Below, piece after piece: positions 617-46,469 of a stretch of DNA of 48,301 nucleotides. Source of the DNA: Escherichia phage vB_ EcoD_Phleasolo. Each line of letters starts with the position of its first letter. The first letter of the stretch is position 1. Made by a program: the position numbers and the translations under genes. The notes under the pieces are model-generated. The model was not told the DNA's origin, ran no database searches, and saw only the letters and a program-made list of their open reading frames with translations. The DNA is taken from the sequence record OL539447.1. The stretch is one strand, 5' to 3'.

Positions 617-2185
617 ATGAATACATTAGCATGGGAGGAGATGACGCCAGCCGAAAAGCTGGCAGTTAAGGCGCTATCCACTCACAGCTTCGAGGCATTC
701 CTTCGCGTATGGTTCCAGTTATCGCAGGGTGAGAGATACATCCCTAACTGGCATCATAAATACCTTTGCCGAATCATTGACGAGGTTATTAGTGGGGAGC
801 GCAGGGATACCATCATTAACGTAGCTCCTGGGGCCGGTAAAACCGAGATTACATCTATTCACTTTCCGGTCTACTCAATGATCAGGCTACCAAAGGTTAG
901 GAACCTTAGCTTGTCATTCTCAGACAGTCTGGTGAAGCGTAACTCCAAGCGTGTTCGCGACCTAATCAAGTCCCCTGAGTTCCAGGAACTATGGCCTTGC
1001 AAGTTTGGCACGTGCAAGGATGATGAAATTCAGGTTCTTGATGAGAGTGGAAAGGTTAGATTCGAAGCTATATCGAAAGCAATTGGCGGTCAGATTACTG
1101 GTGCAAGGGGTGGATACATTACAGATAGCTACAGCGGCTGCTTGATGCTGGATGACCCCGACAAACCAGACGACATGCTCAGCAAGGTAAGGCGTGAGGC
1201 TGTGCACGTTTTACTCAAGAATACCATCCGCTCACGTAGGGCTAGTAGCGTTAAAGGTAAAGCTACGCCGATTCTGTCAATTCAGCAAAGGCTTCATACG
1301 CAGGATTCAACGTGGTTCATGACTTCTGGCGGTATGGGTATCGACTTTGATGTAGTGAAGATACCAGCGCTGGTTAATGAAGACTATGTGAACGAGCTTC
1401 CTGACTGGATTCGTGAGCAGTTCGAGAAGGACGTGCTTTCATCTGAATCAGTTGAGCGTGATGGGGTCAGGTACTATAGCTATTTCCCTCAAAAGGAATC
1501 CGTGCATGATTTGATGGCAATGTGGGAATCAGACCCGTACACATTCCTAAGCCAGTACCAACAATCACCAGTAGCTCTAGGTGGAAACCTGATCAACGTC
1601 GATTGGTTCGTAAGACTTGATGAGAATAACAGGCCGCCAGTCAAGTATGACTACCGATTCATTACTGCCGATACTGCCATGACTACGAAGAGTTATAGCG
1701 ACTACTCTGTGTTACAGCTGTGGGGTCGTAAGGGTAACAAGCTTTACCTTCTGGACATGGTAAGAGGTAAGTGGGAAGCGCCTGAGCTTGAGCAAACTCT
1801 TCTGGACTTTGAGAGTAAGCACAGAGCCACCAGTAAAGCGGACGGTATCTTACGCAAGGTTATTATCGAGAAAAAGGCATCTGGTATCGGTCTTATCCAG
1901 TCAGCGGGTCGGACGATGCGAACTCCTATCGAGCCTTTCGTTCCTGATACAGATAAGTTGACCAGGGTGATGAGCGCATTGCCACAAATTAAGGCGGGTA
2001 ACGTAATTCTGCCAGACTCTGCTCCATGGCTTACATCTTTGCTAACTGAGTTCTCAGCATTCACTGCTGATGATTCTCATCCCCATGATGACATTGTGGA
2101 TACCACAACGATGGCTATCAACTGTGAACTAAACTTAGCGGACGATCCAAGGGCTAGGTTGATGAGGTTAGCAGGTGTTAGATAG
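617..2185 (+). CDS. terminase large subunit
   Basis: 522 aa; Walker A-like VAPGAGKTE and Walker B-like CLMLDDPDKPDD in the N-terminal ATPase region, nuclease-sized C-terminal half; first large gene of the structural module. Confidence 0.85.
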   Translation: MNTLAWEEMTPAEKLAVKALSTHSFEAFLRVWFQLSQGERYIPNWHHKYLCRIIDEVISGERRDTIINVAPGAGKTEITSIHFPVYSMIRLPKVRNLSLSFSDSLVKRNSKRVRDLIKSPEFQELWPCKFGTCKDDEIQVLDESGKVRFEAISKAIGGQITGARGGYITDSYSGCLMLDDPDKPDDMLSKVRREAVHVLLKNTIRSRRASSVKGKATPILSIQQRLHTQDSTWFMTSGGMGIDFDVVKIPALVNEDYVNELPDWIREQFEKDVLSSESVERDGVRYYSYFPQKESVHDLMAMWESDPYTFLSQYQQSPVALGGNLINVDWFVRLDENNRPPVKYDYRFITADTAMTTKSYSDYSVLQLWGRKGNKLYLLDMVRGKWEAPELEQTLLDFESKHRATSKADGILRKVIIEKKASGIGLIQSAGRTMRTPIEPFVPDTDKLTRVMSALPQIKAGNVILPDSAPWLTSLLTEFSAFTADDSHPHDDIVDTTTMAINCELNLADDPRARLMRLAGVR

Positions 2186-2254
2186 CACGAATTGCTAAAG
2201 ACAATAGCCACGGATGGCATATAATTAACTCACTTAAACGAGAGGAGATAGTAA

Positions 2255-2611
2255 ATGTTTAAAGCTAAATTTGTAAATTACAAAACACCAGCATCTGGTT
2301 ATATTGGTATTTTCACTCCTGGTAGGGAGTACAAACTAGATGTCATTGAGAATGACAGATATTATAGAACATACGATGATTACGGCGTAGAGGTTAAGTT
2401 CAATTCACTTTTTTTAGATAATTATGTTTTTGAGCGAGTTTCAGATTCCGAGCTGTTTGACATGATTGAGGAGCCAGCAAGCCTAAAGTATTATATCAAT
2501 GGCAACTTGGTGCAAAAAAGCTACTTCTACGAGTTAATTGGCGAGCTAAATGAGGCTGATAGACTTGGCGCCAAAGTGTCTTCAGTCAAATTTGAAATCA
2601 AGTTCGAGTAA
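2255..2611 (+). CDS. hypothetical protein
   Basis: 118-aa ORF with SD-like GAGAGGAG upstream; followed by a terminator. Confidence 0.4.
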   Translation: MFKAKFVNYKTPASGYIGIFTPGREYKLDVIENDRYYRTYDDYGVEVKFNSLFLDNYVFERVSDSELFDMIEEPASLKYYINGNLVQKSYFYELIGELNEADRLGAKVSSVKFEIKFE

Positions 2612-2631
2612 TCAAAACTCTGTGATACACT

Positions 2632-2656
2632 AGCCCCTACTCAGGGGCTTTTTTAT
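2632..2656 (+). terminator. rho-independent terminator
   Basis: Hairpin AGCCCCT-ACTC-AGGGGCT followed by TTTTTT. Confidence 0.6.
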
Positions 2657-2668
2657 TGGAGAAATTAC

Positions 2669-8594: not shown

Positions 8595-9542
8595 ATGACT
8601 ATCAAACTTGACGCTTTCGAGCAAGAAAAGATTACTAACCACCTGCGCGCTATGGGTGTTGATAAGGCTGATGCGGCTGGTATCTGGACTGTTAAGCAGC
8701 TCACCGCAAGCCTGAATAAAGCTTACGAAACCGAGTACGACCAGAACTCCGTAGTAAATCTGTTCCCTGTAAGTAATGAAATCCCTGGCTACGCTAAATA
8801 TTTTGAGTATCCGGTATTTGATGGCGTAGGTATTGCTCAGATCGTAGCTGATTACACTGATGACCTGCCGCTGGTTGATGCCTTGGCAACTGAACGTCAG
8901 GGTAAAGTTTTCCGCTTCGGTAACGCTTTCCTGATTTCCATTGATGAAATTAAAGTTGGTCAAGCTACCGGTCAGTCTCTGTCTACTCGCAAGCAGTCTC
9001 TTGCTTTCGAAGCTCACGACAAGCTTCTTGATAAACTGGTGTGGTCCGGCTCTACTGCTCACGGCATCCCTAGCGTTTTCGACTACCCGAACATCAACAA
9101 CGTTGTTAGCGCTGGCTCATGGTCTCAGCCAACTACTGCGGTAAGTGATATTACAAGTCTCTTGGATATTATCGAGACTTCAACCAATGGTCAGCACCGT
9201 GCGACTCACCTGCTTCTGCCTACTACCGCTCGTCGTATCATGCAGAACCTGGTACCTGGCACTTCTGTTAGCTACGGTGAATTCTTCCGTCAGAACAATA
9301 GCGGCGTAACAGTTGAGTTCGTTCAGTACCTGAATGATTACAATGGTTCTGGCACCTCTGCAGCTATCGCTTATGAGAAAGACCCTAACAACATGGCAAT
9401 CGAGATTCCGGAAGCGACTAACGCACTGCCGGCTCAGCCGCGCGACTTGCACTTCCGTGTTCCGGTAACTTCTAAAGCAACTGGCTTGATCGTGTATCGT
9501 CCTTTGACCATGGCTGTAATGAAAGGCATCACCTTCGCGTAA
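8595..9542 (+). CDS. major capsid protein
   Basis: 315 aa from the ATG at 8595 (ORF track opens at 8556); strong promoter upstream and strong terminator downstream, central in the head module; start choice uncertain. Confidence 0.6.
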   Translation: MTIKLDAFEQEKITNHLRAMGVDKADAAGIWTVKQLTASLNKAYETEYDQNSVVNLFPVSNEIPGYAKYFEYPVFDGVGIAQIVADYTDDLPLVDALATERQGKVFRFGNAFLISIDEIKVGQATGQSLSTRKQSLAFEAHDKLLDKLVWSGSTAHGIPSVFDYPNINNVVSAGSWSQPTTAVSDITSLLDIIETSTNGQHRATHLLLPTTARRIMQNLVPGTSVSYGEFFRQNNSGVTVEFVQYLNDYNGSGTSAAIAYEKDPNNMAIEIPEATNALPAQPRDLHFRVPVTSKATGLIVYRPLTMAVMKGITFA

Positions 9543-9565
9543 TAGCAATTATTGCTTACCACTTG

Positions 9566-9590
9566 CCACCCTTCGGGGTGGTATTTTTGT
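9566..9590 (+). terminator. rho-independent terminator
   Basis: CCACCC-TTCG-GGGTGG hairpin plus T run immediately after the capsid gene. Confidence 0.7.
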
Positions 9591-9634
9591 TTATATGACT
9601 ATATAATCAAACAATCGAAACAAAGGAGGAAAGA

Positions 9635-34400: not shown

Positions 34401-34404
34401 TTTT

Positions 34405-34632
34405 ATGAAACTTTCTTTAGAAACAAAGTGGGAACTGTTCCAGGGATTAGCAGCAAAGAAGCTGGTTGATAACGGATTTAATCAAGATCCTTTTGAAATG
34501 GCTAGCAGTCTAGATATGAGCTTTGAAGAAGATTACTTGCACGCTGATTTAGAGGATTGGGAAGATATGATGCAAGGTAACATTGAAGAGTTTAAAGAGG
34601 ATGTGCCTGAACTTTTTGCGGAGATTCACTAA
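34405..34632 (+). CDS. hypothetical acidic protein
   Basis: 75 aa from ATG 34405; Asp/Glu-rich. Confidence 0.35.
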   Translation: MKLSLETKWELFQGLAAKKLVDNGFNQDPFEMASSLDMSFEEDYLHADLEDWEDMMQGNIEEFKEDVPELFAEIH

Positions 34633-34934
34633 TGAGTGAGGAACTTAAAGTATTCTATAAAGCCTATGCCGCTTGGCTTGACGCTGGCGCTGTTAACAAG
34701 GGTGCATTCTGGCGTGACTGTGGTTTGTGTACGTGTATCGTGTCTTGGACGAACGACGATGAAGGTTATGAGTTACTGAATGAAATGAAATCGCAGTTTA
34801 CCGCCGCTGGTCTGAGCGATCGATTCCCGTTCAACGTTAGCGACGAGGATTACGCCCGGGAGCATCTCAATAGCGCCATGCACCTTAACGAAGACCGCGT
34901 AGCCTGGGTACGCAAACATGTGGAGATCCACTAA
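34632..34934 (+). CDS. hypothetical protein
   Basis: 100-aa ORF, start coupled to the upstream stop. Confidence 0.4.
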   Translation: MSEELKVFYKAYAAWLDAGAVNKGAFWRDCGLCTCIVSWTNDDEGYELLNEMKSQFTAAGLSDRFPFNVSDEDYAREHLNSAMHLNEDRVAWVRKHVEIH

Positions 34935-34940
34935 TGAAGA

Positions 34941-35285
34941 TTGATAGAAAGCAATTCTCAAAAGCTCAAATTAACGCATGGATTGCAACGCAGTTTAATA
35001 ACTCAGAACATTGGATTAAAGCAATCGAACAGCTTAGGTGTGCTTATGATACTAAAAACCGGAAGGGCTGAGGTCTGGAAGCACTGCGGAGAGGCTGGAC
35101 TACAGGATGATATCAAGATAATAAGTAAGTACTTTGACATTGATGATATCTCTGTAGTTTATGATGGAAAATTCAGCTATATGAACCAGCGCCCTCGAAA
35201 GTATGTAAGAGTTCCGGCAACCCCAAGCCTTGCGATGTATCGCGAGGAAGGTAAGAAGATATTTAAGAAAGGTGCTAAGAAATGA
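34941..35285 (+). CDS. hypothetical protein (start uncertain)
   Basis: Track ORF opens with TTG; likely starts at the ATG at 35046 after AGGTG; an alternative 45-aa ORF (34934-35071) overlaps in another frame. Confidence 0.3.
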   Translation: MIESNSQKLKLTHGLQRSLITQNIGLKQSNSLGVLMILKTGRAEVWKHCGEAGLQDDIKIISKYFDIDDISVVYDGKFSYMNQRPRKYVRVPATPSLAMYREEGKKIFKKGAKK

Positions 35286-35539
35286 ATTTACCTGGACTTG
35301 ATTTTGATGAGAGTAAGTATCCAGTTGTCTTTTTTGGTGAGAAGCCTTACCGGAAGATCCCTTTTGCTGATTGGATTCCACCAGACTATCTTGATGTGCT
35401 GGTTCAGATTGAAGTTGGTAAGGCTGAACTCATGTATTACTCACCAGGCTGCAACATGATGATGCCTAGTGAATACTCTCCGGCAATAGCCGCGCTTGAA
35501 ACTGAGTTTCTTGATTACTGGCTAAAAGAAGTTAAATAG
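35282..35539 (+). CDS. hypothetical protein
   Basis: 85-aa ORF; its TAG stop is the first triplet of a palindromic motif copy. Confidence 0.4.
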   Translation: MNLPGLDFDESKYPVVFFGEKPYRKIPFADWIPPDYLDVLVQIEVGKAELMYYSPGCNMMMPSEYSPAIAALETEFLDYWLKEVK

Positions 35540-35690
35540 CACTTTTTGTTAAAACGCACCGCCAAGGATGGCGTATAGTGTGTTCATCGAAACGAGAGAA
35601 GCTTTAGATGAAAACATTACTACCGTTGATGGCTATGCCATTAACCTTTATAATCATGTACTTCATAATCTGCTAACAGGAAATTAAATA

Positions 35691-36824
35691 ATGGCTATTG
35701 CTAAAATTACGAACGAACAACTTAAAGAAGAACTAGCTAACGGTATGACTAACAAATCAATCGCAGAGAAGTACGGTATGAATATTCGTAACGTAGAACT
35801 GCGTCGCAGCAAGCTGGCTAAGGCTGGGGATGGTCACGGTCGCGATGTTAGTAACCTAATTCCTCAAGGCTACATGGTTAAGGGTGTATCTAGCCTCGTT
35901 GATAATGATGGAAATGTAAAGTTGCAGTGGGTTAAGTCCTCCATTGATGCAGAAAAGCTTGAAGAGATTATGAATCAAGCGCGAGAGGCATTTTCTAGTG
36001 AGTTACCAAAAGAAAAAGCAGTGAAGTCTGAAGGTCTGGATTTTGATGAAGATACTTTAGCCATGTATCCAGTGTTTGACCTTCATATTGGCGCGATGGC
36101 TCATAAGCATGAGTGTGGAGAAAACTACGACACAGCAACAGCTGAGAAAGTAATGAATGACTACTTTGATTACGCTGTTCAGAAAGCTCCAAATTCAAAG
36201 AATGCGGTACTAGTTCTTGGAGGAGATTTACTTCACTATGATTCTCTAGAGGCTAAAACTCCAGCTAGTGGTCACATCCTTGATAGTGACAGTCGCTACG
36301 CTAAAATTGTTTATGTTTGCATACGTTCGGTTCGTCGTGCAATTAGAAACATGCTTAGCAAACATGAAAATGTAGAGGTTAAAGTTATATCCGGGAATCA
36401 TGATGAAAGTGGTATGGTTTGGTTGCGAGCTGCACTTGCGGCATTTTATGAGGAAGAACCACGCGTAAGTATTGATGTTAGCCCCGCGGCAATGATGGTA
36501 ACTAAGTTTGGTTCTACAATGCTCGGGTTCACTCACGGCCATCAAATGCGGAAAGCTGATACTCGCCTTACGGTTATGGCTACTGACTGGCGACGTGACT
36601 TTGGCTTAAGTGATTATGTATACACCCACTCAGGCCACTGGCATTCACAGAAGATTACAGAAACAAATCTTGGTATTGATGAGGTTCATGGTCAGCTTGG
36701 TTCACCAGATGCATATAGTGCGAATGGTGGATGGCGCTCACAAAGGCAGGCTGCGGTAATCATATATCATAAAGAGTTTGGTGAAGTTGGTCGCTTTATC
36801 TGTCGCCCTGAAATGTTTAAATAA
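35691..36824 (+). CDS. HTH domain fused to a calcineurin-like metallophosphoesterase
   Basis: N-terminal HTH-like TNKSIAEKYGMNIRNVELRRSKL; phosphoesterase motifs in canonical order DLHIGAMAH, VLGGDLLHYD, SGNHDE, then GHQ and HSGHWH. Confidence 0.5.
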   Translation: MAIAKITNEQLKEELANGMTNKSIAEKYGMNIRNVELRRSKLAKAGDGHGRDVSNLIPQGYMVKGVSSLVDNDGNVKLQWVKSSIDAEKLEEIMNQAREAFSSELPKEKAVKSEGLDFDEDTLAMYPVFDLHIGAMAHKHECGENYDTATAEKVMNDYFDYAVQKAPNSKNAVLVLGGDLLHYDSLEAKTPASGHILDSDSRYAKIVYVCIRSVRRAIRNMLSKHENVEVKVISGNHDESGMVWLRAALAAFYEEEPRVSIDVSPAAMMVTKFGSTMLGFTHGHQMRKADTRLTVMATDWRRDFGLSDYVYTHSGHWHSQKITETNLGIDEVHGQLGSPDAYSANGGWRSQRQAAVIIYHKEFGEVGRFICRPEMFK

Positions 36825-36890
36825 TAGCACTTTTTGCTAAAGCCCTCCGGGGCTTTTGAAAGGTGTCAATTACAGACTGAGGAATCAAAA

Positions 36891-37088
36891 ATGATTACAG
36901 AGATGATTTTAGTTGCAAGCCTGTCGTCTCCATTGGCATCTCATCAGTATTGTGAGCTTGGCAAAGAGATTTATCACGATGGAGTGGAAGTAAACACAGT
37001 TGTTGAGTGGCTAAATCACAGTACGATGAACATTGATGATAAGAAGGTTGTCCTTGAGTGCTATCTGGTGGAGGCAAATAAAGTTTAA
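36891..37088 (+). CDS. hypothetical protein
   Basis: 65 aa from ATG 36891 after GAGGAATCAAAA. Confidence 0.35.
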   Translation: MITEMILVASLSSPLASHQYCELGKEIYHDGVEVNTVVEWLNHSTMNIDDKKVVLECYLVEANKV

Positions 37089-37164
37089 ATAGCACGAATT
37101 GCTAAAACACAAATTAAAAGATTGGGTATAGTTACTCCATCGAAACAAACGAGAGGATACAAAT

Positions 37165-37350
37165 ATGGCTAAGTTCACACAATCAGATGCACAAATCGAA
37201 GTTAAAGATGTTGGTTTTGGTAAGGCATTCAAGATTGCGCAGGCGTACGGGTCTAGCGAAGAAGATGTGAAAGTTGACACTATTAACCTTACTGCTAAGA
37301 ATGCACGTGAGATCGCTTATGCAATCCTTGCAGCACTTGGAGAAAAATGA
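37165..37350 (+). CDS. hypothetical protein
   Basis: 61-aa ORF with RBS GAGAGGA. Confidence 0.4.
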   Translation: MAKFTQSDAQIEVKDVGFGKAFKIAQAYGSSEEDVKVDTINLTAKNAREIAYAILAALGEK

Positions 37351-37351
37351 A

Positions 37352-37525
37352 ATGACTAAATTATTTTGCGTAATCAACAAATCAAAAACTCTGCCGTTCA
37401 CTGTAAACAATCCGTATAGCGCTGAGTATCAGGGTGAAGGAAACTACAAGATTTATGGCGATGACATGACATGGATTTTTGCGCCAATCGATGGAGCTTT
37501 GTTGGAATTCATTATCGCAGACTAA
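37352..37525 (+). CDS. hypothetical protein
   Basis: 57 aa from ATG 37352, coupled to the upstream stop. Confidence 0.35.
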   Translation: MTKLFCVINKSKTLPFTVNNPYSAEYQGEGNYKIYGDDMTWIFAPIDGALLEFIIAD

Positions 37526-37551
37526 GTTATTAAAAACATTAACTTGCAAAT

Positions 37552-37577
37552 AGGCGGCCTTTAAGGCTGCCTTTTTT
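37552..37577 (+). terminator. rho-independent terminator
   Basis: AGGCGGCC-TTTAA-GGCTGCCT hairpin plus T6 run. Confidence 0.65.
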
Positions 37578-37639
37578 CGTTTATGTCAAAGGCTAATGTC
37601 TGGTATTATTTAACCAAATCAACTAAACAAGGCCGCAAC

Positions 37640-37855
37640 ATGAAACATTTCTATGACGCAGCCGCCTTGTCCGGTAGCGGAGTAGCTATGGGCGGCGGTT
37701 TATCTGACAACACAATCATCGGCATTATCGGATTAGTTATCGCCGTATGCTTTGGTATTTTTGGCGCATGGCTGCGCTGGCGTGACAGTAAAGCGCTCCA
37801 TAAGGCACTTGAAGATGGAGACATCCGAGAGGCAATGAGAATCAGGAGCAAATGA
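37640..37855 (+). CDS. holin (single-TMD type)
   Basis: 71 aa from ATG 37640; one strong hydrophobic helix and a charged C-terminus; overlaps the lysozyme start (ATGATG). Confidence 0.5.
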   Translation: MKHFYDAAALSGSGVAMGGGLSDNTIIGIIGLVIAVCFGIFGAWLRWRDSKALHKALEDGDIREAMRIRSK

Positions 37856-38337
37856 TGAGCATCAAAAATAAGGTAATTGGTTCGGCAGTAGCTGGTGCCA
37901 TGGCGTTAGCGGTTCCGTTCCTTAATGAGCATGAAGGCGTTGAGTACAAGCCTTACAGAGATATTGCTGGGGTATGGACCACATGCGCTGGAATTACTGG
38001 TCCTGACGTTATTCTAGGTAAGGTTTATACTAAGAAAGAGTGTGACGCGCTTCTTGCAAAGCACTTAGCAATTCATCAGCGCGCTGTTGATAAAGCTCTG
38101 AATGTTAATGTTCCAGTTAGCACCAGGGCGGCACTGTACAGTTTTTCATTCAATGTGGGAACCAGTGCAATGCGCAACTCGACTGTTATTAGGCGCATGA
38201 ATCGTGGCGATATCCGCGGAGGATGCGAGGCGCTATCTATGTGGAATAAAATTAGCGTTGGTGGCAAGAAGGTTGTTAGTAAAGGCCTGGTTAACAGGCG
38301 TAACGCGGAGATTAAACTATGCGTCTCGGAATTGTAA
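37852..38337 (+). CDS. endolysin (lysozyme-like muramidase)
   Basis: N-terminal catalytic pattern EHEGVEYKPYRDIAGVWTTCAGITG (Glu...Asp...Thr spacing typical of phage lysozymes). Confidence 0.8.
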   Translation: MMSIKNKVIGSAVAGAMALAVPFLNEHEGVEYKPYRDIAGVWTTCAGITGPDVILGKVYTKKECDALLAKHLAIHQRAVDKALNVNVPVSTRAALYSFSFNVGTSAMRNSTVIRRMNRGDIRGGCEALSMWNKISVGGKKVVSKGLVNRRNAEIKLCVSEL

Positions 38338-38723
38338 TTATTGCAACTGTATTACTGACTGGTTGCTCTGGCCTATCGGCTATTTCTGATTTTTTACCAG
38401 CAAAGGATGGCGTCGAGGCAACAGCGCAGGTGGGTGAATCTAACCAGAAAACAGGGGTTGGGCTATCAAATCAGACAGACAAATCTAGCTCTATAGAAAG
38501 CGATATGCGCAACTCAACTAACAGAGACGTGGACTCATCAAGCCAGAAAAAGACCGCCGCTACTGGCCTATCAGCTAACACAATAACGGCTGAAAAGATT
38601 GAAATTCATAGTACTGAAAACTCAGGGGTAGATTCATTAGTCTGGGGTATTCTTGCCGGGCTAGTTTCTTGTTTGTTAACTTACTTCACTTTAAGATTTG
38701 CAGGAAACAAAAAAGGAGCCTAA
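38319..38723 (+). CDS. unimolecular spanin (u-spanin)
   Basis: N-terminal lipoprotein signal with lipobox (LLTGC) plus a C-terminal transmembrane helix in one polypeptide; last gene of the lysis cassette. Confidence 0.65.
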   Translation: MRLGIVIIATVLLTGCSGLSAISDFLPAKDGVEATAQVGESNQKTGVGLSNQTDKSSSIESDMRNSTNRDVDSSSQKKTAATGLSANTITAEKIEIHSTENSGVDSLVWGILAGLVSCLLTYFTLRFAGNKKGA

Positions 38724-38735
38724 TGGCTCCTTTCT
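38708..38735. terminator. bidirectional terminator
   Basis: AGGAGCC-TAAT-GGCTCCT hairpin flanked by A and T runs between convergent units. Confidence 0.6.
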
Positions 38736-38738
38736 CTA

Positions 38739-38936
38739 TTAATAATCATCCTCCTCGAGGTTGTCACCCTCATACACTAAAAAGAACCCAAGCCTTTGTA
38801 ATTCAGCTCCCGCCATGAAGTAACCCAACGCTTCGGCTCGCTCTGAGTCATTTTTTAAACCATCTAAAGGGTATCTCTCATAAAATTTATTAATCAACAT
38901 AGCTTGGTCAAACTTGCTTGAATTGTATTCTTTCAT
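38739..38936 (-). CDS. hypothetical protein
   Basis: 65-aa ORF, last gene of the leftward unit. Confidence 0.35.
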   Translation of the reverse strand: MKEYNSSKFDQAMLINKFYERYPLDGLKNDSERAEALGYFMAGAELQRLGFFLVYEGDNLEEDDY

Positions 38937-39268
38937 TTAAATAATTCCTCGTCTGTCATTTCTTTTATCGTCATCATCTCATTGGTGTACTTATCACTCT
39001 CACCATTAAGGCATCTGAAGCTAAATCCGAATGGTCGCTTCATGCTTCCTTTACTCCAGTAATTACCATTAACTCCATCGATGTAACCTTCAGTCATACA
39101 TCTTGCCAGAAACTCCTTTGACGCGGATGATGCAAAGTAACGCGTAGTAACTCCAGCCGCTTTAGCCATTCTTTCACAGTCTTTATGGCGGTAAATGAAC
39201 ACCGCCAGATGCTGCCTGTTAAATCTCTCGTAGCTCTCGCAGAACTTGAACACATCTAGTAAAAACAT
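38933..39268 (-). CDS. hypothetical protein
   Basis: 111-aa ORF. Confidence 0.4.
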   Translation of the reverse strand: MFLLDVFKFCESYERFNRQHLAVFIYRHKDCERMAKAAGVTTRYFASSASKEFLARCMTEGYIDGVNGNYWSKGSMKRPFGFSFRCLNGESDKYTNEMMTIKEMTDEELFK

Positions 39269-39367
39269 AAATCACCCATAAATTAATGATAATATGCAAA
39301 ACAAAATACTCATCAAATGAATAGGAATTAGAGAGTACATGACAAAATTTTCAACCTTTCTCATAAA

Positions 39368-40951
39368 TCACCCCAGCAGTCGTGGATTAATGTAAACCTT
39401 ATCACCAATCAGGCAGGTGTAGTTTTTCTCATCAAGCATCGGAAGTAAATGGTCTTTAATCTTAGCCATTACGCCAGCCTGAGCCTCAAACGGTCTAACC
39501 TTACGTGCCGCTTCATAGAGTGATCGCAACCCCACCACTCCTTTACTGTTCTTTCCTTGCTTAATAAGAATATCAATTAGCTTGTTCATCTCTGCATTAT
39601 CACCAGCGTGACCAGCAGCATTAGCGGAAGACAAGTAAGTCTTACTCAGTTCTTCAAACATAAGAAGAGCTTCTTGCATCGTTTCAAGCCCAATCTCCCT
39701 GGACTTCTGCGGACTCCCTCCGTTTGGATTAAACCAGTTACGGATAGTGTGAAGAACTGCCGCTATCCTGATTACCTGCTTATCCATTTTACCTAACGCT
39801 CCGCGCAACATTGTGTGCGAGTACTTACCGCCATCTGCAAGGTGCGGCTCCATTTCCTGACGAGCACGGTTGAGGTGCTTCATTGCTGAATTACTGACAG
39901 TTAGTTTTACATCTTGCTCGCTCATTATTTCATGAACAAGACGAAAGTAATCTGCCTTTAATCCACCATCAATTGGTTTATATGTTGACTCGCCCTCATC
40001 ATCAACAAACACACGCTCACCAAGGAATGACTTCTCGCGCACAAGAAGGAAACGCTCTGATACACCGATACCGCGAGCGCCAGCATTCATGATTGCGACG
40101 ATTGTTTCATCCTGCGCAATTACAGAAATGCAACCCATAGCAATAAAGCTCATGTTGTTCTCTGCGTTCGCACGCGCGATAGATACGTTACCAGCATCCC
40201 AGGCCTTCAGAACAAGTTCGCTGTTAGTTTTCTTCGAGCCATCACCGTAAGTCATACCAAGAAGTGAGTTAACACTTGTCGCTTCATCAGAAATCACGGA
40301 GAAGTTGCCCTGGCGGTTGTTGATTCGCGCAAGACCTTCCGGGGTAGTATCAGATACCGGAAACACAATGTCGCACAGCTTTTCTAACTTCTCTTCCAAC
40401 TCCTCTTTATCTTCGAATAATCCAGCCATCTCAGATGGTGACTTCTCTTGCTTCATTTCTTTTGCCAGGGCTGACAATTTAGCCATAATCTTCTTACGGT
40501 CACGCTTGCGTAATTCGTTCAATCGCTCAGTCTCAGCAATCATTGGCGCTAGTGCGAGTGAGTTAATAGCTGACTTACCAGTTGATGGAGGCTGACTGGT
40601 TACTACGTACAGCGCGGTAGGCTGCTGAGTTCCATGATACTCAACCGTAAAGCGACCAAGCATTGCTGCTGAAATACACCCAAGGAAGTGCATGTAAGCT
40701 GAAGACTCTGGGAACTGAACTGAGCGTGCGATATTGCTTGATAATTTACCAACGACATCACAATCATTTCCTAGCGAGATGACCGGATATTTGTCACCAG
40801 TTGAATCAATTTCTACCGGAGCCTTCCAGAATGATGCACTCTGTCGATAACCATTGGCATTAATAGCAACTCGCAATGGTGGTAAATTTTCAGCTGCCGC
40901 AACAGACATTACTTGTTCGACTGATAATTTATCTTCGTTAAAATCAAACAT
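39368..40951 (-). CDS. P-loop NTPase (replication/defence-associated, family unresolved)
   Basis: 527 aa; Walker A-like SQPPSTGKS and Walker B-like FSVISDEA; its termini have a paralogous copy at 43257-43928. Confidence 0.45.
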   Translation of the reverse strand: MFDFNEDKLSVEQVMSVAAAENLPPLRVAINANGYRQSASFWKAPVEIDSTGDKYPVISLGNDCDVVGKLSSNIARSVQFPESSAYMHFLGCISAAMLGRFTVEYHGTQQPTALYVVTSQPPSTGKSAINSLALAPMIAETERLNELRKRDRKKIMAKLSALAKEMKQEKSPSEMAGLFEDKEELEEKLEKLCDIVFPVSDTTPEGLARINNRQGNFSVISDEATSVNSLLGMTYGDGSKKTNSELVLKAWDAGNVSIARANAENNMSFIAMGCISVIAQDETIVAIMNAGARGIGVSERFLLVREKSFLGERVFVDDEGESTYKPIDGGLKADYFRLVHEIMSEQDVKLTVSNSAMKHLNRARQEMEPHLADGGKYSHTMLRGALGKMDKQVIRIAAVLHTIRNWFNPNGGSPQKSREIGLETMQEALLMFEELSKTYLSSANAAGHAGDNAEMNKLIDILIKQGKNSKGVVGLRSLYEAARKVRPFEAQAGVMAKIKDHLLPMLDEKNYTCLIGDKVYINPRLLG

Positions 40952-41028
40952 CTTATTCTCTCTATTTGTTATCGATGGGTATAAATATACCCGCCGAAGC
41001 GGGTAGTGTCATTAACAAAAAGTGCTAT

Positions 41029-41382
41029 TTACTTATACTGAGCTTCAAACTTATACATCCCATAACCAACATCATAGCCAACTTCATCATCGCGAGTAAG
41101 TTGCCAGCCGTCACCTTCGTTGTCGTAGATGTAGCCAGCATTACGACCTAATCCAGCGTGCATGGAGACCTGGTAACGCTTACCTTCAGTAAATGATTTC
41201 TTGAGCGGATTGCTGTGGTCAACCCTGGTGCACAGTAGTGTCTTTGTCTTAATGTAGTGACCGTTCATGTCTATATTAACCCATTTGCCATCGACCTTAA
41301 TTTGTTCAACTCCATCTTTTGCTCGAGCTTTAAATAATTTGTTATCGCTGCTTACCCAGTTCTTTGTGATGGTAGTGGCCAT
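41029..41382 (-). CDS. hypothetical protein
   Basis: 117-aa ORF with RBS AAGGAAAG; promoter-like motif upstream. Confidence 0.4.
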   Translation of the reverse strand: MATTITKNWVSSDNKLFKARAKDGVEQIKVDGKWVNIDMNGHYIKTKTLLCTRVDHSNPLKKSFTEGKRYQVSMHAGLGRNAGYIYDNEGDGWQLTRDDEVGYDVGYGMYKFEAQYK

Positions 41383-41454
41383 TATTACTTTCCTTTTATG
41401 CGTGTCATTTCAGTGATTTCAATATACATCATAAGCCCCGAAGGGCTTTAACAA

Positions 41455-41613
41455 TTAGTGCTATTTCTTTGCTGCTTTTGCAATTGCTTTCTGAACAATG
41501 TCGAAACTCTCAATCAAATCTTCTTTAAAGTAGTCACCAACAGGCCAGCCCTTGCCGCTGTACTTTGCTATGGTTTCTAGATCGTAATAGTTCAAATCAG
41601 ATGGCTTAAGCAT
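41455..41613 (-). CDS. small hypothetical protein (52 aa)
   Basis: ATG overlaps the upstream stop (TAAATG); below the ORF-track cutoff. Confidence 0.3.
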
Positions 41614-41853
41614 TTATCTCACCTCATCAAAAGTGGCGATTCCAGGGATGAACATACCAACCTTCCAGCCAGCTATAGCAATCCACCCCGAATCGTGCTT
41701 GTGCGGACGCTCAGCGCCATTAATCACCCATTCGTTCGGGATTGTCTTACCGTTAATGATAAGCGGCTCAGCGTCGTATACAGAGTCTTTTACGAACGGT
41801 GTTAAAACCTTCTTATCCGTGCTTTGGATAACGTTAGTGCAGCGAATCTTCAT
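41614..41853 (-). CDS. hypothetical protein
   Basis: 79-aa ORF coupled to its neighbours. Confidence 0.4.
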   Translation of the reverse strand: MKIRCTNVIQSTDKKVLTPFVKDSVYDAEPLIINGKTIPNEWVINGAERPHKHDSGWIAIAGWKVGMFIPGIATFDEVR

Positions 41854-42107
41854 GCTAATACCTCGATTTCTTCTTCCGTAACGCTGAATTCTTCACCTTC
41901 ATAAACAGCCGTGATGCCATCAATTACAACATCGCGCTTCGCATCAATGAAGTACTCACCTTCAAGTTCAAACACCTCAACCTCTTCACCAACTTCATAG
42001 CCCATCTCAGCCAGGCTTAATGCATCTTCGTCAAACTTGATTTCGTTGTTGATAATAATCGCTTTCATCTGATATCTCCTCGTTGTCGATGTGATAACTA
42101 TAACCAA
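41850..42107 (-). CDS. small highly acidic protein (paralog of 46527-46739)
   Basis: 85 aa, about 25 Asp/Glu versus 5 Lys/Arg; first gene of the leftward unit leaving control region B. Confidence 0.4.
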   Translation of the reverse strand: MVIVITSTTRRYQMKAIIINNEIKFDEDALSLAEMGYEVGEEVEVFELEGEYFIDAKRDVVIDGITAVYEGEEFSVTEEEIEVLA

Positions 42108-42160
42108 TCAGGGCTGAATGGTCATTAGCAAAAAGTGCTATTCGTTCGATTTATGGATTG

Positions 42161-42257
42161 TTGCAGATATTGCAATGATTCACTTCACTATTGCATGTAT
42201 AGCAATATTGCATCGATTGCAATGATTTTCTGGACTGTTGCGAAATTTGCAATGATT
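42161..42257. repeat. iteron-like array: three or four copies of TTGCR-N5-TGCAA, each followed by TGATT
   Basis: Copies at 42161-42175, 42191-42205 (degenerate), 42208-42222 and 42238-42252, in the divergent intergenic region. Confidence 0.6.
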
Positions 42258-42682
42258 GATGGATTGATGGAATGAAGGAGGGCGCATCAACTAGTTGGTT
42301 GGTTTTAGCTTACACGAGGAGCTTTCCTTTATATACGCGTTATGGCTTGTTCAACCGTGTGGAGAAATTGCCATATTTACGCCATCCACGCCAGTTTACG
42401 CGCTGGTTACAAAATAAATCCCTTATATAACAACCTTTTAGATTTATTATTATTATTATTATTATATATGTTATCCCGTAACCATGATTATCCAAGATAT
42501 TGGTGATATTTTTTTGATATTGCGCGGCGCATAAAGATTTAGATAAAGAGATAGGGATGCAAGTGGGGTGGAGAAAATGGCTTAACAGACCATAACGGCA
42601 ATAACAGCCTTGATATGACTAGCGTCAGCATGTAACAATTTAGCATAACGTGCGATTACTGAGTTGAACGTGTAAATAATGC

Positions 42683-42710
42683 TTGCGACATTCACCCATC
42701 ATGGTAAGAT
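42683..42710 (+). promoter_or_regulatory. sigma70-like promoter candidate (TTGCGA-N16-TAAGAT)
   Basis: Hexamers read directly, about 30 nt upstream of the 42742 start. Confidence 0.3.
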
Positions 42711-43257: not shown

Positions 43258-43928
43258 TGTTTGATTTCAAAGAGGATAAACTTACTTATGAGCAGGTGTT
43301 AGCAGCAGCAGCGGCAGACAATCTGCCTCCCTTGCGAGTATCAATAATTGCAAATGGTTACCGACAATCTGCAAATCTATGGCCTGAACTGGATAAGGTA
43401 TGGCGAATACAGTAATTTTTACATTGATGAGTGCGTTGAACTATATGAAGGATATGGCGAGCCAACTGCGTGCCATGGAGATGAGCTTGGTATCAGCTTT
43501 CCCGAAGAGCGTGAGGATTGATATATGACAAAGATTTCGAACTAGACACTGGAGCTTTAAAGATTATAGAAATCCTCATTAATCAAGGAATGAGCAGTAA
43601 AGGTGTCGTTGGTCTCGGGTCACTATATAATACAGTAAGGAAAGTTAAACCATTCGAAGGTAAAAGTGAAGTAATTATGGATATCAGAGATGTCATCATC
43701 CCAAACCTTGATAAGCTTGGCTATGCATGCCTAATCGGAGATAAGATTTACATCAACCCTAAACTGCTTGATGGCAACCAGGACTGGACTTACAAGGTTA
43801 AGCTGCTGGAAGATGATTTCAACATCGACGATTGCGAGAAGATTGTTGACGAGATTACTATCAAGGCAATTGATGAGCAAATCGAGAGGCTCAAGCGGAA
43901 GAAGAAGTACCTCCTGACCGGTAAATAG
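43257..43928 (+). pseudogene. internally deleted paralog of the 527-aa P-loop gene (N-terminal 52-aa ORF 43257-43415 plus C-terminal ORF 43518-43928)
   Basis: MFDFKEDKLTYEQVLAAAAADNLPPLRVSIIANGYRQSA matches the N-terminus of the 39368-40951 protein; ...KGVVGLGSLYNTVRKVKPFEG...YACLIGDKIYINPKLL matches its C-terminus; ATPase core absent. Confidence 0.45.
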
Positions 43929-43968
43929 CACGAATTGCTAAACCAGTTCCGCAGGGATGCGTTATAGT
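43926..43968 (+). promoter_or_regulatory. representative phage promoter unit: TAGCA-N5-TGCTA palindrome, 22-nt spacer with CGCA-GGGA-TGCG mini-palindrome, TATAGT -10
   Basis: Same architecture recurs about 16 times across the genome, followed by a conserved CATCGAAACGA leader. Confidence 0.5.
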
Positions 43969-44289
43969 TATTTCATCGAAACGAAATGGTTAATAGAGGA
44001 AGGCAAATGAGTTATTACGAAGTTATCGACACTGGCAATAAATCATTACTTGGCTCAAAGCGCTTTAAATGTACCGGCCAAGGGTTCACTGGATACGGCT
44101 TTGACGAGAAAGATGCCATCCTGGAATGGAAAGAAGCTAAATACATTGGGGAGTTCGACGAATGAAACACATTGGATGGCTGGTAAACGGAACGTTCTAC
44201 TCACTAACCGACGCAGTAAGGGTGGAAAGAATTAGAGTTAACTGCGGACGAAATGTCCAGATTCTTGAAATTTACGCAGAGGAGGAAGT

Positions 44290-44766
44290 ATGCGTAAGGT
44301 ACTGATGATATGCGTCTATGTTGCCATATTCTTATTGGCAAACCTCCTGGTAGCCTCATTTGGTCCAGCGGTAACTCCATTTAACGCACTTTTTCTTATA
44401 GCGGCAGACATGGTATTAAGGGACAGGATTCAGTTTGAGAGCGGTGCGGCATGGTCAATACTAGCATGCTTCCTTGCCGGATTTGCGACTGTATTAATAG
44501 CGCCAGGTTCAGAGATGATTGCTTTAGCATCTGGCCTATCATGCTTACTTGCTGGATCAGCTTCAGCGATTGCATTCAAATTAAAGTCTGGTGGATTTTT
44601 TCAGAAGGCGTTGCCAGCAAACGTAATTGCTGCTGCGGTAGATTCAATTGCATTCCCATTAATTGCTTTCGGGTCTATAATGCCAGGCATAACAGCAGCC
44701 CAGTTTGCCGCTAAAACTATTGGCGCATCAATCATACTATTAATCATAAGGAAATTATCTAAGTGA
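44290..44766 (+). CDS. small polytopic inner-membrane protein (possible precursor transporter; family unverified)
   Basis: 158 aa with 4-5 hydrophobic helices; RBS GGAGG; stop overlaps the next gene's GTG start (GTGA). Confidence 0.4.
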   Translation: MRKVLMICVYVAIFLLANLLVASFGPAVTPFNALFLIAADMVLRDRIQFESGAAWSILACFLAGFATVLIAPGSEMIALASGLSCLLAGSASAIAFKLKSGGFFQKALPANVIAAAVDSIAFPLIAFGSIMPGITAAQFAAKTIGASIILLIIRKLSK

Positions 44767-45593
44767 CAATTCACTTCCATGGCTCCCCTATAACGGGGGG
44801 CAAGGGCGATGCACTTGCTCGGACCGCGTATACAAATGGCGGTGCTTTCGTGTCATTCGCCCACCCGCAGCAGATAGAATTGGCGTTTAAGGTAGCGAAT
44901 GCAGTATGCATAGATAATGGTGCGTTCTCTAAGAAGAATAGCGGCAAAGCTACTGACTGGCATAAATTCTATAATGACTTTTTACCCAGATTTATCGACA
45001 GAGAAAAGTTACGATTCTTTGTTATACCTGATGATATCAGCGGGTGCGACAAAGAGAACGACAGATTAATAAGCGAACTTCCATTACACCTAAAGCACAA
45101 AGGAGCTCCAGTCTGGCATATGCATGAGAGCTTAGACAGGCTAGTCCACCTTGCCAACGAGTGGGAATACATGTGTATAGGCTCGTCAGGCGAGTACTAC
45201 TCTATCCGTTCAGAGAAATGGAAGCGGCGCATGAATGATGCCTTTAACGCTCTAATTCAGAGGGGCTACTCAGCAAAAATTCACGGCCTCAGAATGCTGG
45301 ATGGTCGAGTTCTTGGCAACTACCCACTGGATCAGGCTGACTCAACAAACCTGGCTATTAATGCGCCTAAGTGGATATGCAAATATATAGATATGACCAT
45401 TGAGGCGTGCCGAGCTCAGACTCACAGAGACGCATGGATTTCAACCTCAGATCCGAAGTTTGCACTTGAGCAATTAATCGCAGACGGCGGCACAAGGGAG
45501 CAGATGCTGGCACAGAGATGCGCGATACTCAGGAATTGCATAGAAGCAGTAAGGCCACCATCAAGGGATTCATGGAATAGCACGAATTGCTAA
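44763..45593 (+). CDS. hypothetical enzyme (possible TGT/DpdA-like base-exchange enzyme)
   Basis: 276 aa; VCIDNGAFS resembles the TGT substrate-pocket motif (TDSGGFQ); no CxCxxC zinc site seen; coupled to the upstream membrane protein. Confidence 0.3.
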   Translation: MTIHFHGSPITGGKGDALARTAYTNGGAFVSFAHPQQIELAFKVANAVCIDNGAFSKKNSGKATDWHKFYNDFLPRFIDREKLRFFVIPDDISGCDKENDRLISELPLHLKHKGAPVWHMHESLDRLVHLANEWEYMCIGSSGEYYSIRSEKWKRRMNDAFNALIQRGYSAKIHGLRMLDGRVLGNYPLDQADSTNLAINAPKWICKYIDMTIEACRAQTHRDAWISTSDPKFALEQLIADGGTREQMLAQRCAILRNCIEAVRPPSRDSWNSTNC

Positions 45594-45644
45594 ACAATAA
45601 ATCGGGTAGTCAGCTATGATTACCCTATCAACAACGAAGAGGAA

Positions 45645-45863
45645 ATGATTATGGATACTGGAATTTTACGCATTGACGATGTTCACTTTGACCAGGCTGA
45701 GGTCAGTGTCACCAAGTTAACCTTTCGAGGTAATGTTGTTAGCCTTGACTTCGATCCTGACGACTACGGCGACGGTCAAACACTTATGCAATACTCACCT
45801 GTTGCGGCCCGCAAATTAGCGGCGGCATTAATCCTGGCGGCAGAAGAGGCGGAAGAGCAATGA
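45645..45863 (+). CDS. hypothetical protein
   Basis: 72-aa ORF with RBS GAAGAGGAA. Confidence 0.4.
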   Translation: MIMDTGILRIDDVHFDQAEVSVTKLTFRGNVVSLDFDPDDYGDGQTLMQYSPVAARKLAAALILAAEEAEEQ

Positions 45864-46099
45864 TTACCATTAACCTGTCTTATGAACAAGCTGCAGAGCT
45901 AAAAGATATAATGCAGCACTCACTCATTAACAAGAATTATAGCTGCACAGAGGTGCTATCAGAAGCGATTACACAGATTCAGAACCAACAGATAGCTGAC
46001 GATGATGAACTCCCATGGGACACTGATACCGCCTGGAGCCGATACGAGCAGATTTGCACAGCGCTATCAGGTTGTCAGCTGGCTAGCCAATACAAATGA
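45860..46099 (+). CDS. hypothetical protein
   Basis: 79-aa ORF coupled to the upstream gene. Confidence 0.4.
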   Translation: MITINLSYEQAAELKDIMQHSLINKNYSCTEVLSEAITQIQNQQIADDDELPWDTDTAWSRYEQICTALSGCQLASQYK

Positions 46100-46217
46100 C
46101 AATATACGAACACAAATTCAGTAGCAGGGGTATTGATATGCTCCTGCATTATGTAGACGAGAGATACGCCATGTTGATGCAGAAGACGCATGGCGGCACA
46201 ATAACGAGGATTGAGAT

Positions 46218-46469
46218 ATGAAGATTCATAGCAAGTACAACCGAGAGATTATCGGCCTGGATGGAACGTTAACGACAGTCGATGTATATCGTGTTCTGGA
46301 TGCATTCCAGGTAACAGACCCAGCAATTCAGCACGCAATCAAGAAAATGCTCTGTACTGGGTTGCGAGGCCACAAGGATTACCTCACCGACATTGATGAC
46401 TCAATAGAATCACTTAGGAAAGCAAAGGAGCTTTACGGTCAGAAGAAGATAAATAGCACGAATTGCTAA
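46218..46469 (+). CDS. hypothetical protein
   Basis: 83-aa ORF; ends ...NSTNC via the palindromic motif. Confidence 0.4.
   Translation: MKIHSKYNREIIGLDGTLTTVDVYRVLDAFQVTDPAIQHAIKKMLCTGLRGHKDYLTDIDDSIESLRKAKELYGQKKINSTNC

Follow-up and report, generated by a model that had tools for sequence, protein, structure and literature searches.

Gene layout and the repeated element

Sequence record OL539447.1 holds the complete genome of Escherichia phage vB_EcoD_Phleasolo, a virulent T1-like siphophage of the Drexlerviridae (Rogunavirinae, classified as for Sadiya), and its 48,301 bases form the window analysed here. Structural genes occupy ~0.6-23 kb, and genes for replication, recombination and lysis lie with many small early genes at 23-48 kb. 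The record begins at the small terminase gene and is a circular permutation; bases 30000-42000 are 100% identical to Klebsiella phage vB_KpnD_Opt-79 and to Escherichia phages vB_EcoD_Opt-719 and vB_EcoD_Sadiya. The subject of this report is a short repeated element, TAGCA-N5-TGCTA, that lies at the 3' ends of genes and upstream of -10 hexamers. The analysis suggests that this repeat is the upstream half of ~14 predicted promoters, and that early transcription may proceed largely via a host regulator.

T1-like phages have been puzzling to annotators, as almost no canonical sigma70 promoters are found in them and they have neither a phage polymerase nor a sigma factor. The genome papers on Rogue1 and AHP24 searched only for promoters of the form TTGACA-N15-17-TATAAT, and no literature on T1 transcript maps was found. 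Canonical sigma70 -35/-10 pairs show no enrichment in the present analysis (39, against 38.3 in shuffled sequences). A re-annotation of phage TLS in 2024 described a 21-nt direct repeat, aaATAGCACnnnTTGnTAAAA, which occurs in 21 places, points along transcription, precedes start codons by ~76 nt and falls into the subtypes GAA, TTT and AAA; it was stated, as an unpublished observation, to be also found in T1, Rtp and Rogue1 (PMC11447400). Its authors reported three sigma70-like promoters only and left the function of the repeat open, naming a stoperator, an enhancer-binding site and an UP element, and the paper mentioned neither a marbox nor a fixed coupling to a -10 (PMC11447400). The TLS repeat is the same element in a sister lineage, with the same centre subtypes and with ~76 nt to the start codons compared with 67-93 nt from element to start codon here.

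Expected counts were taken from shuffled sequences (dinucleotide shuffles for the 15-mer), which are the only baseline for the enrichments given below. Exact copies of TAGCA-N5-TGCTA number nine in the whole genome against 0.11 expected, and 17 copies are found with up to one mismatch against 2.5 expected. With a weight matrix derived from the copies, exactly 16 positions exceeded 20 bits, and no score in 50 shuffled genomes was above 19.7. These are the 16 copies listed in an initial annotation made from the DNA letters, and all are present.

The repeated unit is longer than the palindrome and asymmetric, reading aATAGCAC(GAA/TTT)TTG(C/T)TAAA, and it is treated here as a 20-bp site that runs from 1 nt before TAGCA to 4 nt after TGCTA. 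Every copy is oriented toward the downstream gene, the four minus-strand copies included. A hexamer resembling TATAGT, TATTAT or TATAAT follows 14 copies at 17-19 bp beyond the 20-bp element, and at exactly 18 bp in 10 of the 14. Gaps to the -10 are counted from the end of the 20-bp site, where 17-19 bp equal 21-23 nt from the end of the 15-mer; the spacing of 22 +/- 1 nt that the initial annotation claimed for at least 11 copies is thus found in 14. The copies at 9543 and 36825 are the exceptions, a terminator-like GC hairpin coming next instead. After the -10, ~6 nt precede a conserved leader, ATCGAAACGA, and a ribosome-binding site in most copies, as had been described.

The overlap with upstream stop codons noted earlier is real by coordinates. 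Three proteins (33621-34010, 44763-45593 and 46218-46469) end in NSTNC, and other genes stop at the TAG within ATAGCAC. The position of the elements at gene 3' ends is an overlap of promoter and stop codon in a compact genome, and both the palindromic look and the NSTNC tails follow as side effects from the site sequence and this overlap.

The element matches the E. coli marbox

The published E. coli marbox (soxbox) consensus is AYNGCACNNWNNRYYAAAYN (PMC2064960, PMC3709825). The unit matches it position for position, with the 20-bp asymmetric arrangement AYnGCACnnWnnRYYAAAYn. When the window was scanned with the published consensus rather than with the matrix derived from its own copies, six perfect matches (0.03 expected) and ten with one mismatch (0.79 expected) were obtained. 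The comparison covered four lineages, namely this phage, T1, TLS and KP36, and matches with up to one mismatch number 21 in T1, 21 in TLS (1.45 expected) and 13 in KP36 (1.04 expected). The sole mismatch is nearly always an A or G at position 19, most commonly A, which is also the base found there in the E. coli micF marbox.

The micF promoter of E. coli K-12, read directly, has the marbox ACAGCACTGAATGTCAAAAC followed after 18 bp by the -10 TAGAAT, with the site centred at -41.5 from the annotated 5' end. The gap is the same as in the phage promoters, and ACAGCACTGAATGTCAAAAC is identical to the phage site ATAGCACGAATTGCTAAAAC at 14 of 20 positions, with A at position 19 in both. A composite pattern that joins the E. 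coli marbox core to the micF spacing, GCACNNWNNRYYAAA-N20-TANNNT, has 10 occurrences in the window and 11 in T1 (0.00 expected in each), with 9 in TLS and 10 in KP36 (0.01 expected in each).

The spacing was also examined in a collection assembled independently of the motif, in which 135 promoter sites from 124 loci were chosen by the -10 and the ATCGAAAC leader alone. A marbox with up to one mismatch lies at the exact 18-bp register in 102 of these sites and at 19 bp in six, and at other registers in none. In a separate IMG/VR collection, for which these positions were left free in the search, position 10 is W in 100% and position 14 is Y in 98%. A scan of IMG/VR with the strict composite pattern gave at least 120 stretches, and among the matches listed all are on contigs of 41-52 kb with several copies each. 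Where the region upstream of the helicase gene is aligned for the four lineages, the marbox and the -10 stand out as two long invariant blocks, the remaining conservation being scattered single columns. The marbox match, the orientation rule, the spacing, the lack of a -35 and the asymmetry are features of the DNA itself, and conservation extends over four Drexlerviridae lineages.

All 14 copies are in forward orientation (GCAC...AAA along transcription) with the centre at ~-41 relative to the predicted start, close to the -41/-42 position of class II activators to which the initial annotation had assigned the palindrome centre. The -10 consensus is TATAaT, and ~80% of sites have a G at -14, giving a partly extended -10. 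The hexamer at the -35 position reads AAAACn and is not recognisable as a -35. In class II promoters of the host the marbox is forward and overlaps the -35, and in class I promoters it is reversed and lies further upstream (PMC12052159, PMC6900184). A study of Salmonella by ChIP-seq and Cappable-seq placed sites at ~-41 (forward) and at -62 and -72 (reverse), and described class II promoters with a canonical -10 and without a recognizable -35 (PMC10268841). For RamA the sites are at ~-41 (micF) and -71.5 (acrA), and in forward orientation the site reads CAC(T/G)-N7-AAA (PMC8811837).

The reversed arrangement, with a marbox at ~-62/-72 before a good -35, is also found, in one case per genome and relative to a predicted start. 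In T1 the reverse marbox at 101-120 lies 15 bp upstream of TTGATT-N17-TATGAT, and in the E. coli mar promoter, read directly, the gap from marbox to -35 is likewise 15 bp. The reverse complement of the mar marbox, ATGCCACGTTTTGCTAAATC, is identical to the window site 36824-36843 at 16 of 20 positions, the entire TTTTGCTAAA half included. A repeat that had been reported and left unexplained can therefore be assigned, on sequence, orientation and geometry, to putative class II marbox promoters and one putative class I promoter. No link between the marbox or MarA/SoxS and phages or Drexlerviridae was apparent from titles or abstracts in the literature searched.

Proposed mechanism

In the mechanism proposed here the element would be a 20-bp marbox, asymmetric and bound as a monomer by the AraC-family proteins MarA, SoxS or Rob, or by RamA in Klebsiella. 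The ~14 forward copies, placed 18 (17-19) bp before a near-consensus -10 with no -35, would form a class II architecture centred at ~-41. The bound activator would substitute for recognition of a -35 and recruit sigma70 RNA polymerase, and transcription would start at the A of the ATCGAAAC leader. The reverse perfect site, ~71 bp upstream of a promoter that has its own -35, would represent a class I architecture. Together these promoters would drive most of the non-structural genes, namely those for replication and recombination, the small early genes and the genes before the lysis cassette. The reader would be supplied by the host as Rob, or as MarA, SoxS or RamA when induced. In this scheme the start sites, the binding of MarA, SoxS or Rob and the dependence on an activator are predicted from sequence. 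The predicted starts lie at 2232, 23802, 26243, 31647, 34044, 35586, 37139, 42717, 43975, 45627 and 46503 on the + strand, and at ~23342, 40976, 41414 and 42090 on the - strand.

The wider proposal is that the Drexlerviridae outsource most early and middle transcription to MarA, SoxS, Rob or RamA, by way of class II marbox promoters plus a single class I site. Antibiotics, bile salts, salicylate or oxidative stress would then adjust the course of phage development, and the replicating marboxes could titrate these regulators off the host resistance regulon. We regard this proposal as about as likely as not.

Predicted promoters of the window

In the left part of the genome, the marbox ATAGCACGAATTGCTAAAGA (2182-2201) is followed after 18 bp by TATAAT (2220-2225). 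This predicted class II promoter (2182-2225, +) has a predicted start at ~2232 and would drive the gene starting at 2255. The feature at 9542-9605 (+) begins with a degenerate marbox (9542-9561, three mismatches), continues with a hairpin, CCACCC-ttcg-GGGTGG, and a T-run (9566-9589), and ends with TATAAT (9600-9605) and a ATCGAAAC leader; the gap of 38 bp is not a class II spacing. On the minus strand, a forward marbox (23374-23393) is separated by 19 bp from TATAGT (23349-23354). This predicted class II promoter (23349-23393, -) would drive the lipoprotein and Cor superinfection-exclusion genes, for which the likely true start is the ATG at 23308. The predicted class II promoter at 23752-23795 (+) consists of the marbox ATAGCACGATTAATCAAAAC, 18 bp and TATAGT, and would drive the Rha-family gene at 23897. 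It has lost the 3' arm of the palindrome and retains the second recognition element of the marbox (R-Y-Y-AAA).

Further predicted promoters follow between 26 and 38 kb. A forward marbox, 18 bp and TATAGT make up the predicted class II promoter at 26193-26236 (+), which would drive the Erf recombinase gene at 26264. The perfect marbox ATAGCACTTTTTGTTAAACA, 17 bp from TATTAT, belongs to the predicted class II promoter at 31598-31640 (+) of the helicase gene at 31678; this promoter is divergent from the gene of a Cro-like regulator, and its position is conserved in T1, TLS and KP36. Within the 3' end of the regulator gene is a candidate primase promoter (31090-31134, -), formed from the degenerate marbox GCAGCACGAAAAGCTAAAGA (31115-31134), which is an addition to the earlier list, 19 bp and CATAAT. 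The predicted class II promoter at 33994-34037 (+) has a forward marbox, an 18-bp spacer with the mini-hairpin CCA-agga-TGG, and TATTAT, and the VRR-NUC protein encoded upstream ends in NSTNC within the marbox. That at 35536-35579 (+) has a forward marbox, 18 bp and TATAGT, with the spacer hairpin GCCA-agga-TGGC. At 36824-36864 (+) the marbox ATAGCACTTTTTGCTAAAGC merges at its 3' end into a terminator-like hairpin, AAGCCCtccgGGGCTTTT, and no -10 lies at class II spacing. A forward marbox, 18 bp and TATAGT again form the predicted class II promoter at 37089-37132 (+), before the small genes that precede the lysis cassette.

Three further predicted promoters are on the minus strand. The promoter at 40984-41028 (-) carries a marbox variant (TAATGA), 19 bp and TATATT, which can also be read as ATGACA-N17-TATATT; the hairpin CCCGC-ttcg-GCGGG lies immediately before its -10, and it would drive a DUF3987 helicase-like gene. 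The predicted class II promoter at 41421-41464 (-) has a forward marbox, 18 bp and TATATT, with the spacer hairpin AAGCCC-ttcg-GGGCTT. A second marbox variant, at 42097-42141 (-), is 19 bp from TATAGT, can also be read as ATGACC-N17-TATAGT, and marks the first promoter of the leftward operon.

The first promoter of the rightward operon (42742) is the putative class I promoter at 42637-42710 (+). It has a perfect reverse marbox, AATTTAGCATAACGTGCGAT on the + strand (42637-42656), which was not on the earlier list, then 26 bp, then TTGCGA-N16-TAAGAT (42683-42710), and the site is centred at ~-71 from the predicted start at 42717, as in class I geometry. The last three promoters each have a perfect marbox and an 18-bp spacer and are predicted to be of class II. 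The promoter at 43925-43968 (+) has TATAGT, the hairpin CGCA-ggga-TGCG and a predicted start at 43975. That at 45577-45620 (+) has TATGAT, with GGGTA...TACCC bracketing the -10, and that at 46453-46496 (+) has TACTAT; upstream of each is a gene for an NSTNC-ending protein.

Marbox-type sequences are also found away from these promoters. Three lineages share a consensus match at the start of the long tail-fibre (gpJ-like) gene or shortly before it (window 18504-18523; T1 L003 25021-25040; TLS L004 24908-24926). The match covers the ribosome-binding site or the start codon and is not followed by a -10, and it may be due to chance or have a role other than as a promoter. In T1 and TLS a reverse marbox lies in the spacer of TTGACG-N16-TATTAT just before the major head gene (T1 L003 15062-15089; TLS L004 15024-15042), and a second reverse copy is upstream of a tail gene in T1 (L003 18807-18850). 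No equivalent of a reverse marbox within a promoter spacer was found in the window. A protein bound in the spacer of the head-gene promoter should repress it, which hints at an early/late switch by the same factor.

Asymmetry of the element

The initial annotation took the palindrome to be the functional unit. This does not agree with the logo of the 135-site collection, in which conservation is asymmetric. C at position 7 (0.84) faces T at its mirror partner, position 11 (0.91), and A faces A in the pairs 1/17 and 0/18, all of them conserved and non-complementary; position 4 is G (0.89), with C (0.53) or T (0.39) at its partner, position 14. Variants that break the palindrome keep the marbox code (Y/N/R-Y-Y), as in ...TAATCAAA, ...AGCCAAA and ACGGCAC.... 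Examples are ...TTAATCAAA at 23752 in the window, ...ATAGCCAAAC in KP36 and ACGGCA(C/T)AAATAGCTAAAC in T1 and KP36. MarA binds as a monomer with two different reading heads (PMC5684230), and a protein of this kind is a good fit to the element. Owing to the asymmetry, the palindrome-breaking variants and the weak RNA fold described below, both an RNA hairpin and a symmetric dimer operator fit poorly.

Several known promoter elements were compared with the repeat and rejected. A sigma54 -24/-12 element (TGGCAC-N5-TTGCW) does not fit, as AG-N8-GC is present rather than GG and GC 10 bp apart, the arrangement is 2 bp short and the C of TTGC is not conserved. TTGCTA taken as a -35 would have a spacer of 22 bp to the -10, and a sigma32-like CCCCAT after the -10 has no -35 partner at the right spacing.

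Candidate readers and alternative explanations

No AraC-type protein was found to be encoded by the phage, which makes a host reader the most likely one. A tblastn search of the phage with MarA and SoxS gave nothing below E = 0.9, Pfam scans of 56 non-structural or unknown proteins detected no HTH_18 or AraC family, and comparison with PHROGs added no further regulators. Families of the MotA/AsiA type likewise did not appear in the Pfam scans of phage proteins. The initial annotation had proposed a phage-specific, activator-dependent promoter family. The promoter family stands, with the element as its upstream part, and "phage-specific" is made doubtful by the match to the host marbox, the micF geometry and the lack of an AraC-type protein. 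On balance a host activator, either constitutive Rob or MarA, SoxS or RamA when induced, probably reads the elements.

A number of points weigh against a host reader. Cells free of stress contain little MarA and SoxS, and Rob is for the most part sequestered (PMC5684230); the scarcity of the former two makes it less certain that a fast lytic phage could rely on them. Phage sites vary less than host marboxes, with T2, A3, TT11-12 and A19 nearly fixed, which could reflect a reader of narrower specificity such as a phage protein, but the mar marbox also has TTTTGCTAAA. Many early proteins belong to no detectable family and their folds are unknown, and two conserved phage proteins have helix-turn-helix (HTH) domains, namely the Cro-like regulator and the HTH-phosphoesterase protein 35691-36824. 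The good, partly extended -10 may also confer substantial activity that is independent of an activator. Finally, rob, marA or soxS mutants are not known to resist T1-like phages, an effect that redundancy among the three genes could hide. A phage-encoded reader, all candidates being taken together, nevertheless seems rather unlikely.

The strongest of the alternatives is that the Cro/cI-like protein encoded at 31111-31593 (-) acts as a dimeric activator, binding TAGCA-N5-TGCTA symmetrically at -42 and touching sigma region 4, with the likeness to the marbox being a coincidence. There is a precedent in lambda, where CI at OR2 activates PRM as a class II activator from the same position and with the same contact to sigma region 4. 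The common features are a centre at ~-42, a weak -35 and, here, a Cro/cI-like protein encoded near one site. This gene is divergent from a marbox promoter, such that one site could both autoregulate it and activate the helicase gene. The protein (160 aa) is conserved in all Drexlerviridae examined, its structure is modelled confidently (predicted local distance difference test, pLDDT, 84.7), and the 15-mer is a perfect 5+5 palindrome in nine copies. However, the model shows a single Cro/cI-type HTH with a small C-terminal domain rather than an AraC fold, and the recognition helix reads TRQAVEEW, SNQTVQGW, NLKTVWGW and SIQVVQQW in the window, T1, TLS and KP36, so that residues 69-74 differ and W75 alone is invariant while the DNA motif is identical in the four phages. 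This counts against the protein as the binder that the initial annotation had suggested.

The site itself is also unlike a two-fold symmetric operator of the lambda CI/Cro type. Lambda operators are symmetric and orientation-free, whereas the conserved positions here are not two-fold symmetric (the pairs 7/11, 1/17 and 0/18 are non-complementary and position 4 is far more conserved than 14), both flanks are A-rich on the same strand, and the strict orientation to transcription would be needless for a symmetric site. Variants that destroy one arm are uncompensated and retain the 18-bp geometry, and a full match to a 20-bp host consensus arising by chance, together with class II and class I geometries, is improbable. 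We therefore regard the dimeric activator as an unlikely explanation. The Rha protein, which had also been put forward as a binder, has no annotated homologue in T1, and searching the PDB with the sequences of both candidate binders returned no informative match.

It is distinctly unlikely that another phage protein mimics MarA at a site that evolved from, or converged on, marbox promoters. The reader would be the N-terminal HTH of the protein 35691-36824 or an uncharacterised early protein. The 377-aa protein 35691-36824 has its HTH fused to a phosphoesterase-like domain, an unusual combination. The HTH is strongly conserved in the four lineages (I24, A25, E26, G29, M30, R33, V35, E36 and R38), and the KP36 homologue is annotated with a Sigma70_r4_2 match; the uniformity of the sites and the early proteins without a family, mentioned above, also favour such a mimic. 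Against this, a single HTH does not account for a bipartite site of 20 bp whose two recognition elements are separated by 7 bp, and the searches given above found no AraC-like protein with two HTH motifs. The Pfam matches of the window protein are weak (GerE, E = 0.04; Metallophos, E = 0.00066, below the cut-off), a PHROG match annotates it as a DNA repair exonuclease, and its gene is itself downstream of the marbox promoter at 35536. In addition, reverse class I sites are specific to the contact of MarA, SoxS or Rob with the C-terminal domain of the polymerase alpha subunit (PMC6900184).

Of the ideas raised for TLS, the elements could be repressor or roadblock sites of the stoperator kind, or they could make UP-element-like alpha contacts. 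They are oriented with transcription and intergenic (PMC11447400), both flanks are A-rich, and the reverse copies before the major head gene of T1 and TLS, in the spacer of a canonical promoter, are in a repressing position. The fixed 18-bp coupling to a -10 without a -35, however, points to a promoter element more than to a roadblock. Stoperators of the mycobacteriophage L5 type were rejected on this ground and on the absence of a repressor or integrase from the annotation and Pfam scans of this virulent phage. The UP element consensus is A/T-rich, spans -40 to -60 and is contacted by the C-terminal domain of the polymerase alpha subunit. It does not fit the base composition of the repeat, in which -46 to -38 reads CAC(GAA/TTT)TTG and the core has an invariant GCAC and TTG. 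Both forms of this explanation are taken to be highly improbable.

The idea that the palindrome is an RNA 3'-end hairpin, serving the upstream gene as a terminator or stabiliser, can practically be dismissed: it shares bases with upstream stop codons, a stem of 5 bp closing a loop of 5 nt can be drawn and terminator-like hairpins lie nearby, but the fold is worth -3.7 kcal/mol in the GAA type and -1.3 kcal/mol in the TTT/TTGTTA type, no U-tract follows, changes in the 3' arm are not compensated in the 5' arm, which is invariant, the asymmetric conservation extends beyond the stem, and the real hairpins are separate elements in the spacer.

Hairpins, leaders and start codons

Many sites have a hairpin between the marbox and the -10, and the spacer mini-hairpins described earlier (CCA-agga-TGG, CGCA-ggga-TGCG and full GC hairpins) occur as claimed. 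Terminator-like hairpins with the T-rich -10 as their tail are found at 41013 (-), 41449 (-), 36825 and 9543. A different structure, a 6-bp inverted repeat, brackets the -10 in about one quarter of 289 sites, positions 27-32 pairing with 50-45 when the marbox is numbered 1-20. An example is GGGGTA-tcttgc-TATAGT-TACCCC, and the repeat, of 5-6 bp, is seen at 45603-45626 in the window, at many T1 sites (such as L003 1476-1499) and at IMG/VR loci. Full Watson-Crick pairing (6/6) is present in 52 of the 289 sites (18%), compared with 0.8% when arms are recombined across sites; the arms covary between sites, 11 different arm pairs occur and the pairing is register-specific. The 3' arm is the discriminator (-6 to -1) and therefore lies outside the transcript from that promoter. 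The stem could function in read-through RNA, whether as a processing site or as the 3' end of the upstream module, or in DNA.

A C-rich discriminator precedes the predicted start, and the leader ATCGAAACGA(A/G) begins at it (for example 43975-43990), with A at +1 in 83% of ~250 sites. The conserved first transcribed bases could act in promoter escape, as a translation enhancer or as an RNase site.

Annotated or longest open reading frame starts fall inside the promoter or leader in several cases (34026 vs 34077; 43986 vs 44007; 23383 vs 23308). The misplaced starts include an ATG within the CCAAGGATGG mini-hairpin and a TTG within a marbox. Translation probably begins at the downstream ATGs preceded by a ribosome-binding site, which would leave several deposited proteins with an N-terminus that is too long.

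The divergent early control region (42160-42265 and 42440-42462) contains TTGCA-type repeats (TTGCAATGATT three times, with variants) and an (ATT)n microsatellite. The repeats are candidate targets of the Cro-like regulator. Similar TTGCA repeats are found at the left end of the T1 record (L003 1-60), where they might represent a pac, origin or operator site.

Related deposits

Three deposits of 48,301-48,303 bp are 100% identical over the 12 kb compared, and their stated hosts differ, being Klebsiella, Escherichia and Serratia. The MarA/SoxS/Rob/RamA family of regulators is present in Klebsiella, E. coli and Serratia alike. Relative to the otherwise identical Sadiya (43401-43530 and 46200-46250, compared with OL539467), a 129-bp cassette with an apparent small open reading frame occupies another gene junction, and here it interrupts a 180-aa gene annotated in Sadiya. 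Both junctions have GAGGATTGA(T/G)ATATGA, which combines a ribosome-binding site with stop and start codons that overlap. Its placement suggests recombination between gene-junction repeats, or a difference in assembly.

Implications and comparison with known systems

A marbox placed in a class II promoter offers a concrete mechanism for the promoter problem of the T1-like phages. If correct, it would tie infection by common coliphages and Klebsiella phages to the intrinsic antibiotic-resistance regulon of the host, which is relevant to the combination of phages with antibiotics, and it would help to account for the ability of T1-like phages to function in several enterobacterial genera. It would also provide a compact set of strong, stress-responsive promoters and lead to better annotation, given that several start codons are now called inside these promoters.

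The T4 middle promoters resemble the phage promoters described here in that a good -10 is combined with an activator box in place of the -35. The T4 MotA box is centred near -30 and read by the phage protein MotA, with appropriation of sigma by AsiA, whereas the element here is centred at -41 and matches the site of a host factor. In comparison with the mar and acrA class I promoters, the phages have one such site per genome, its start being predicted and not mapped. The closest counterparts are the class II promoters of the host (micF; lpxC P2, lpxL P1 and rfaY P1), which have in common with the phage promoters a forward 20-bp site, a centre at ~-41, a canonical -10 and no -35 (PMC10268841, PMC8811837, PMC12052159). 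Host marboxes are degenerate, whereas the phage has ~14 near-identical and near-perfect copies in one 48-kb virulent genome, predicted to drive most of its non-structural genes. The phage promoters further differ from those of the host in the G at -14, the C-rich discriminator, the ATCGAAAC leader and the hairpins in and around the spacer.

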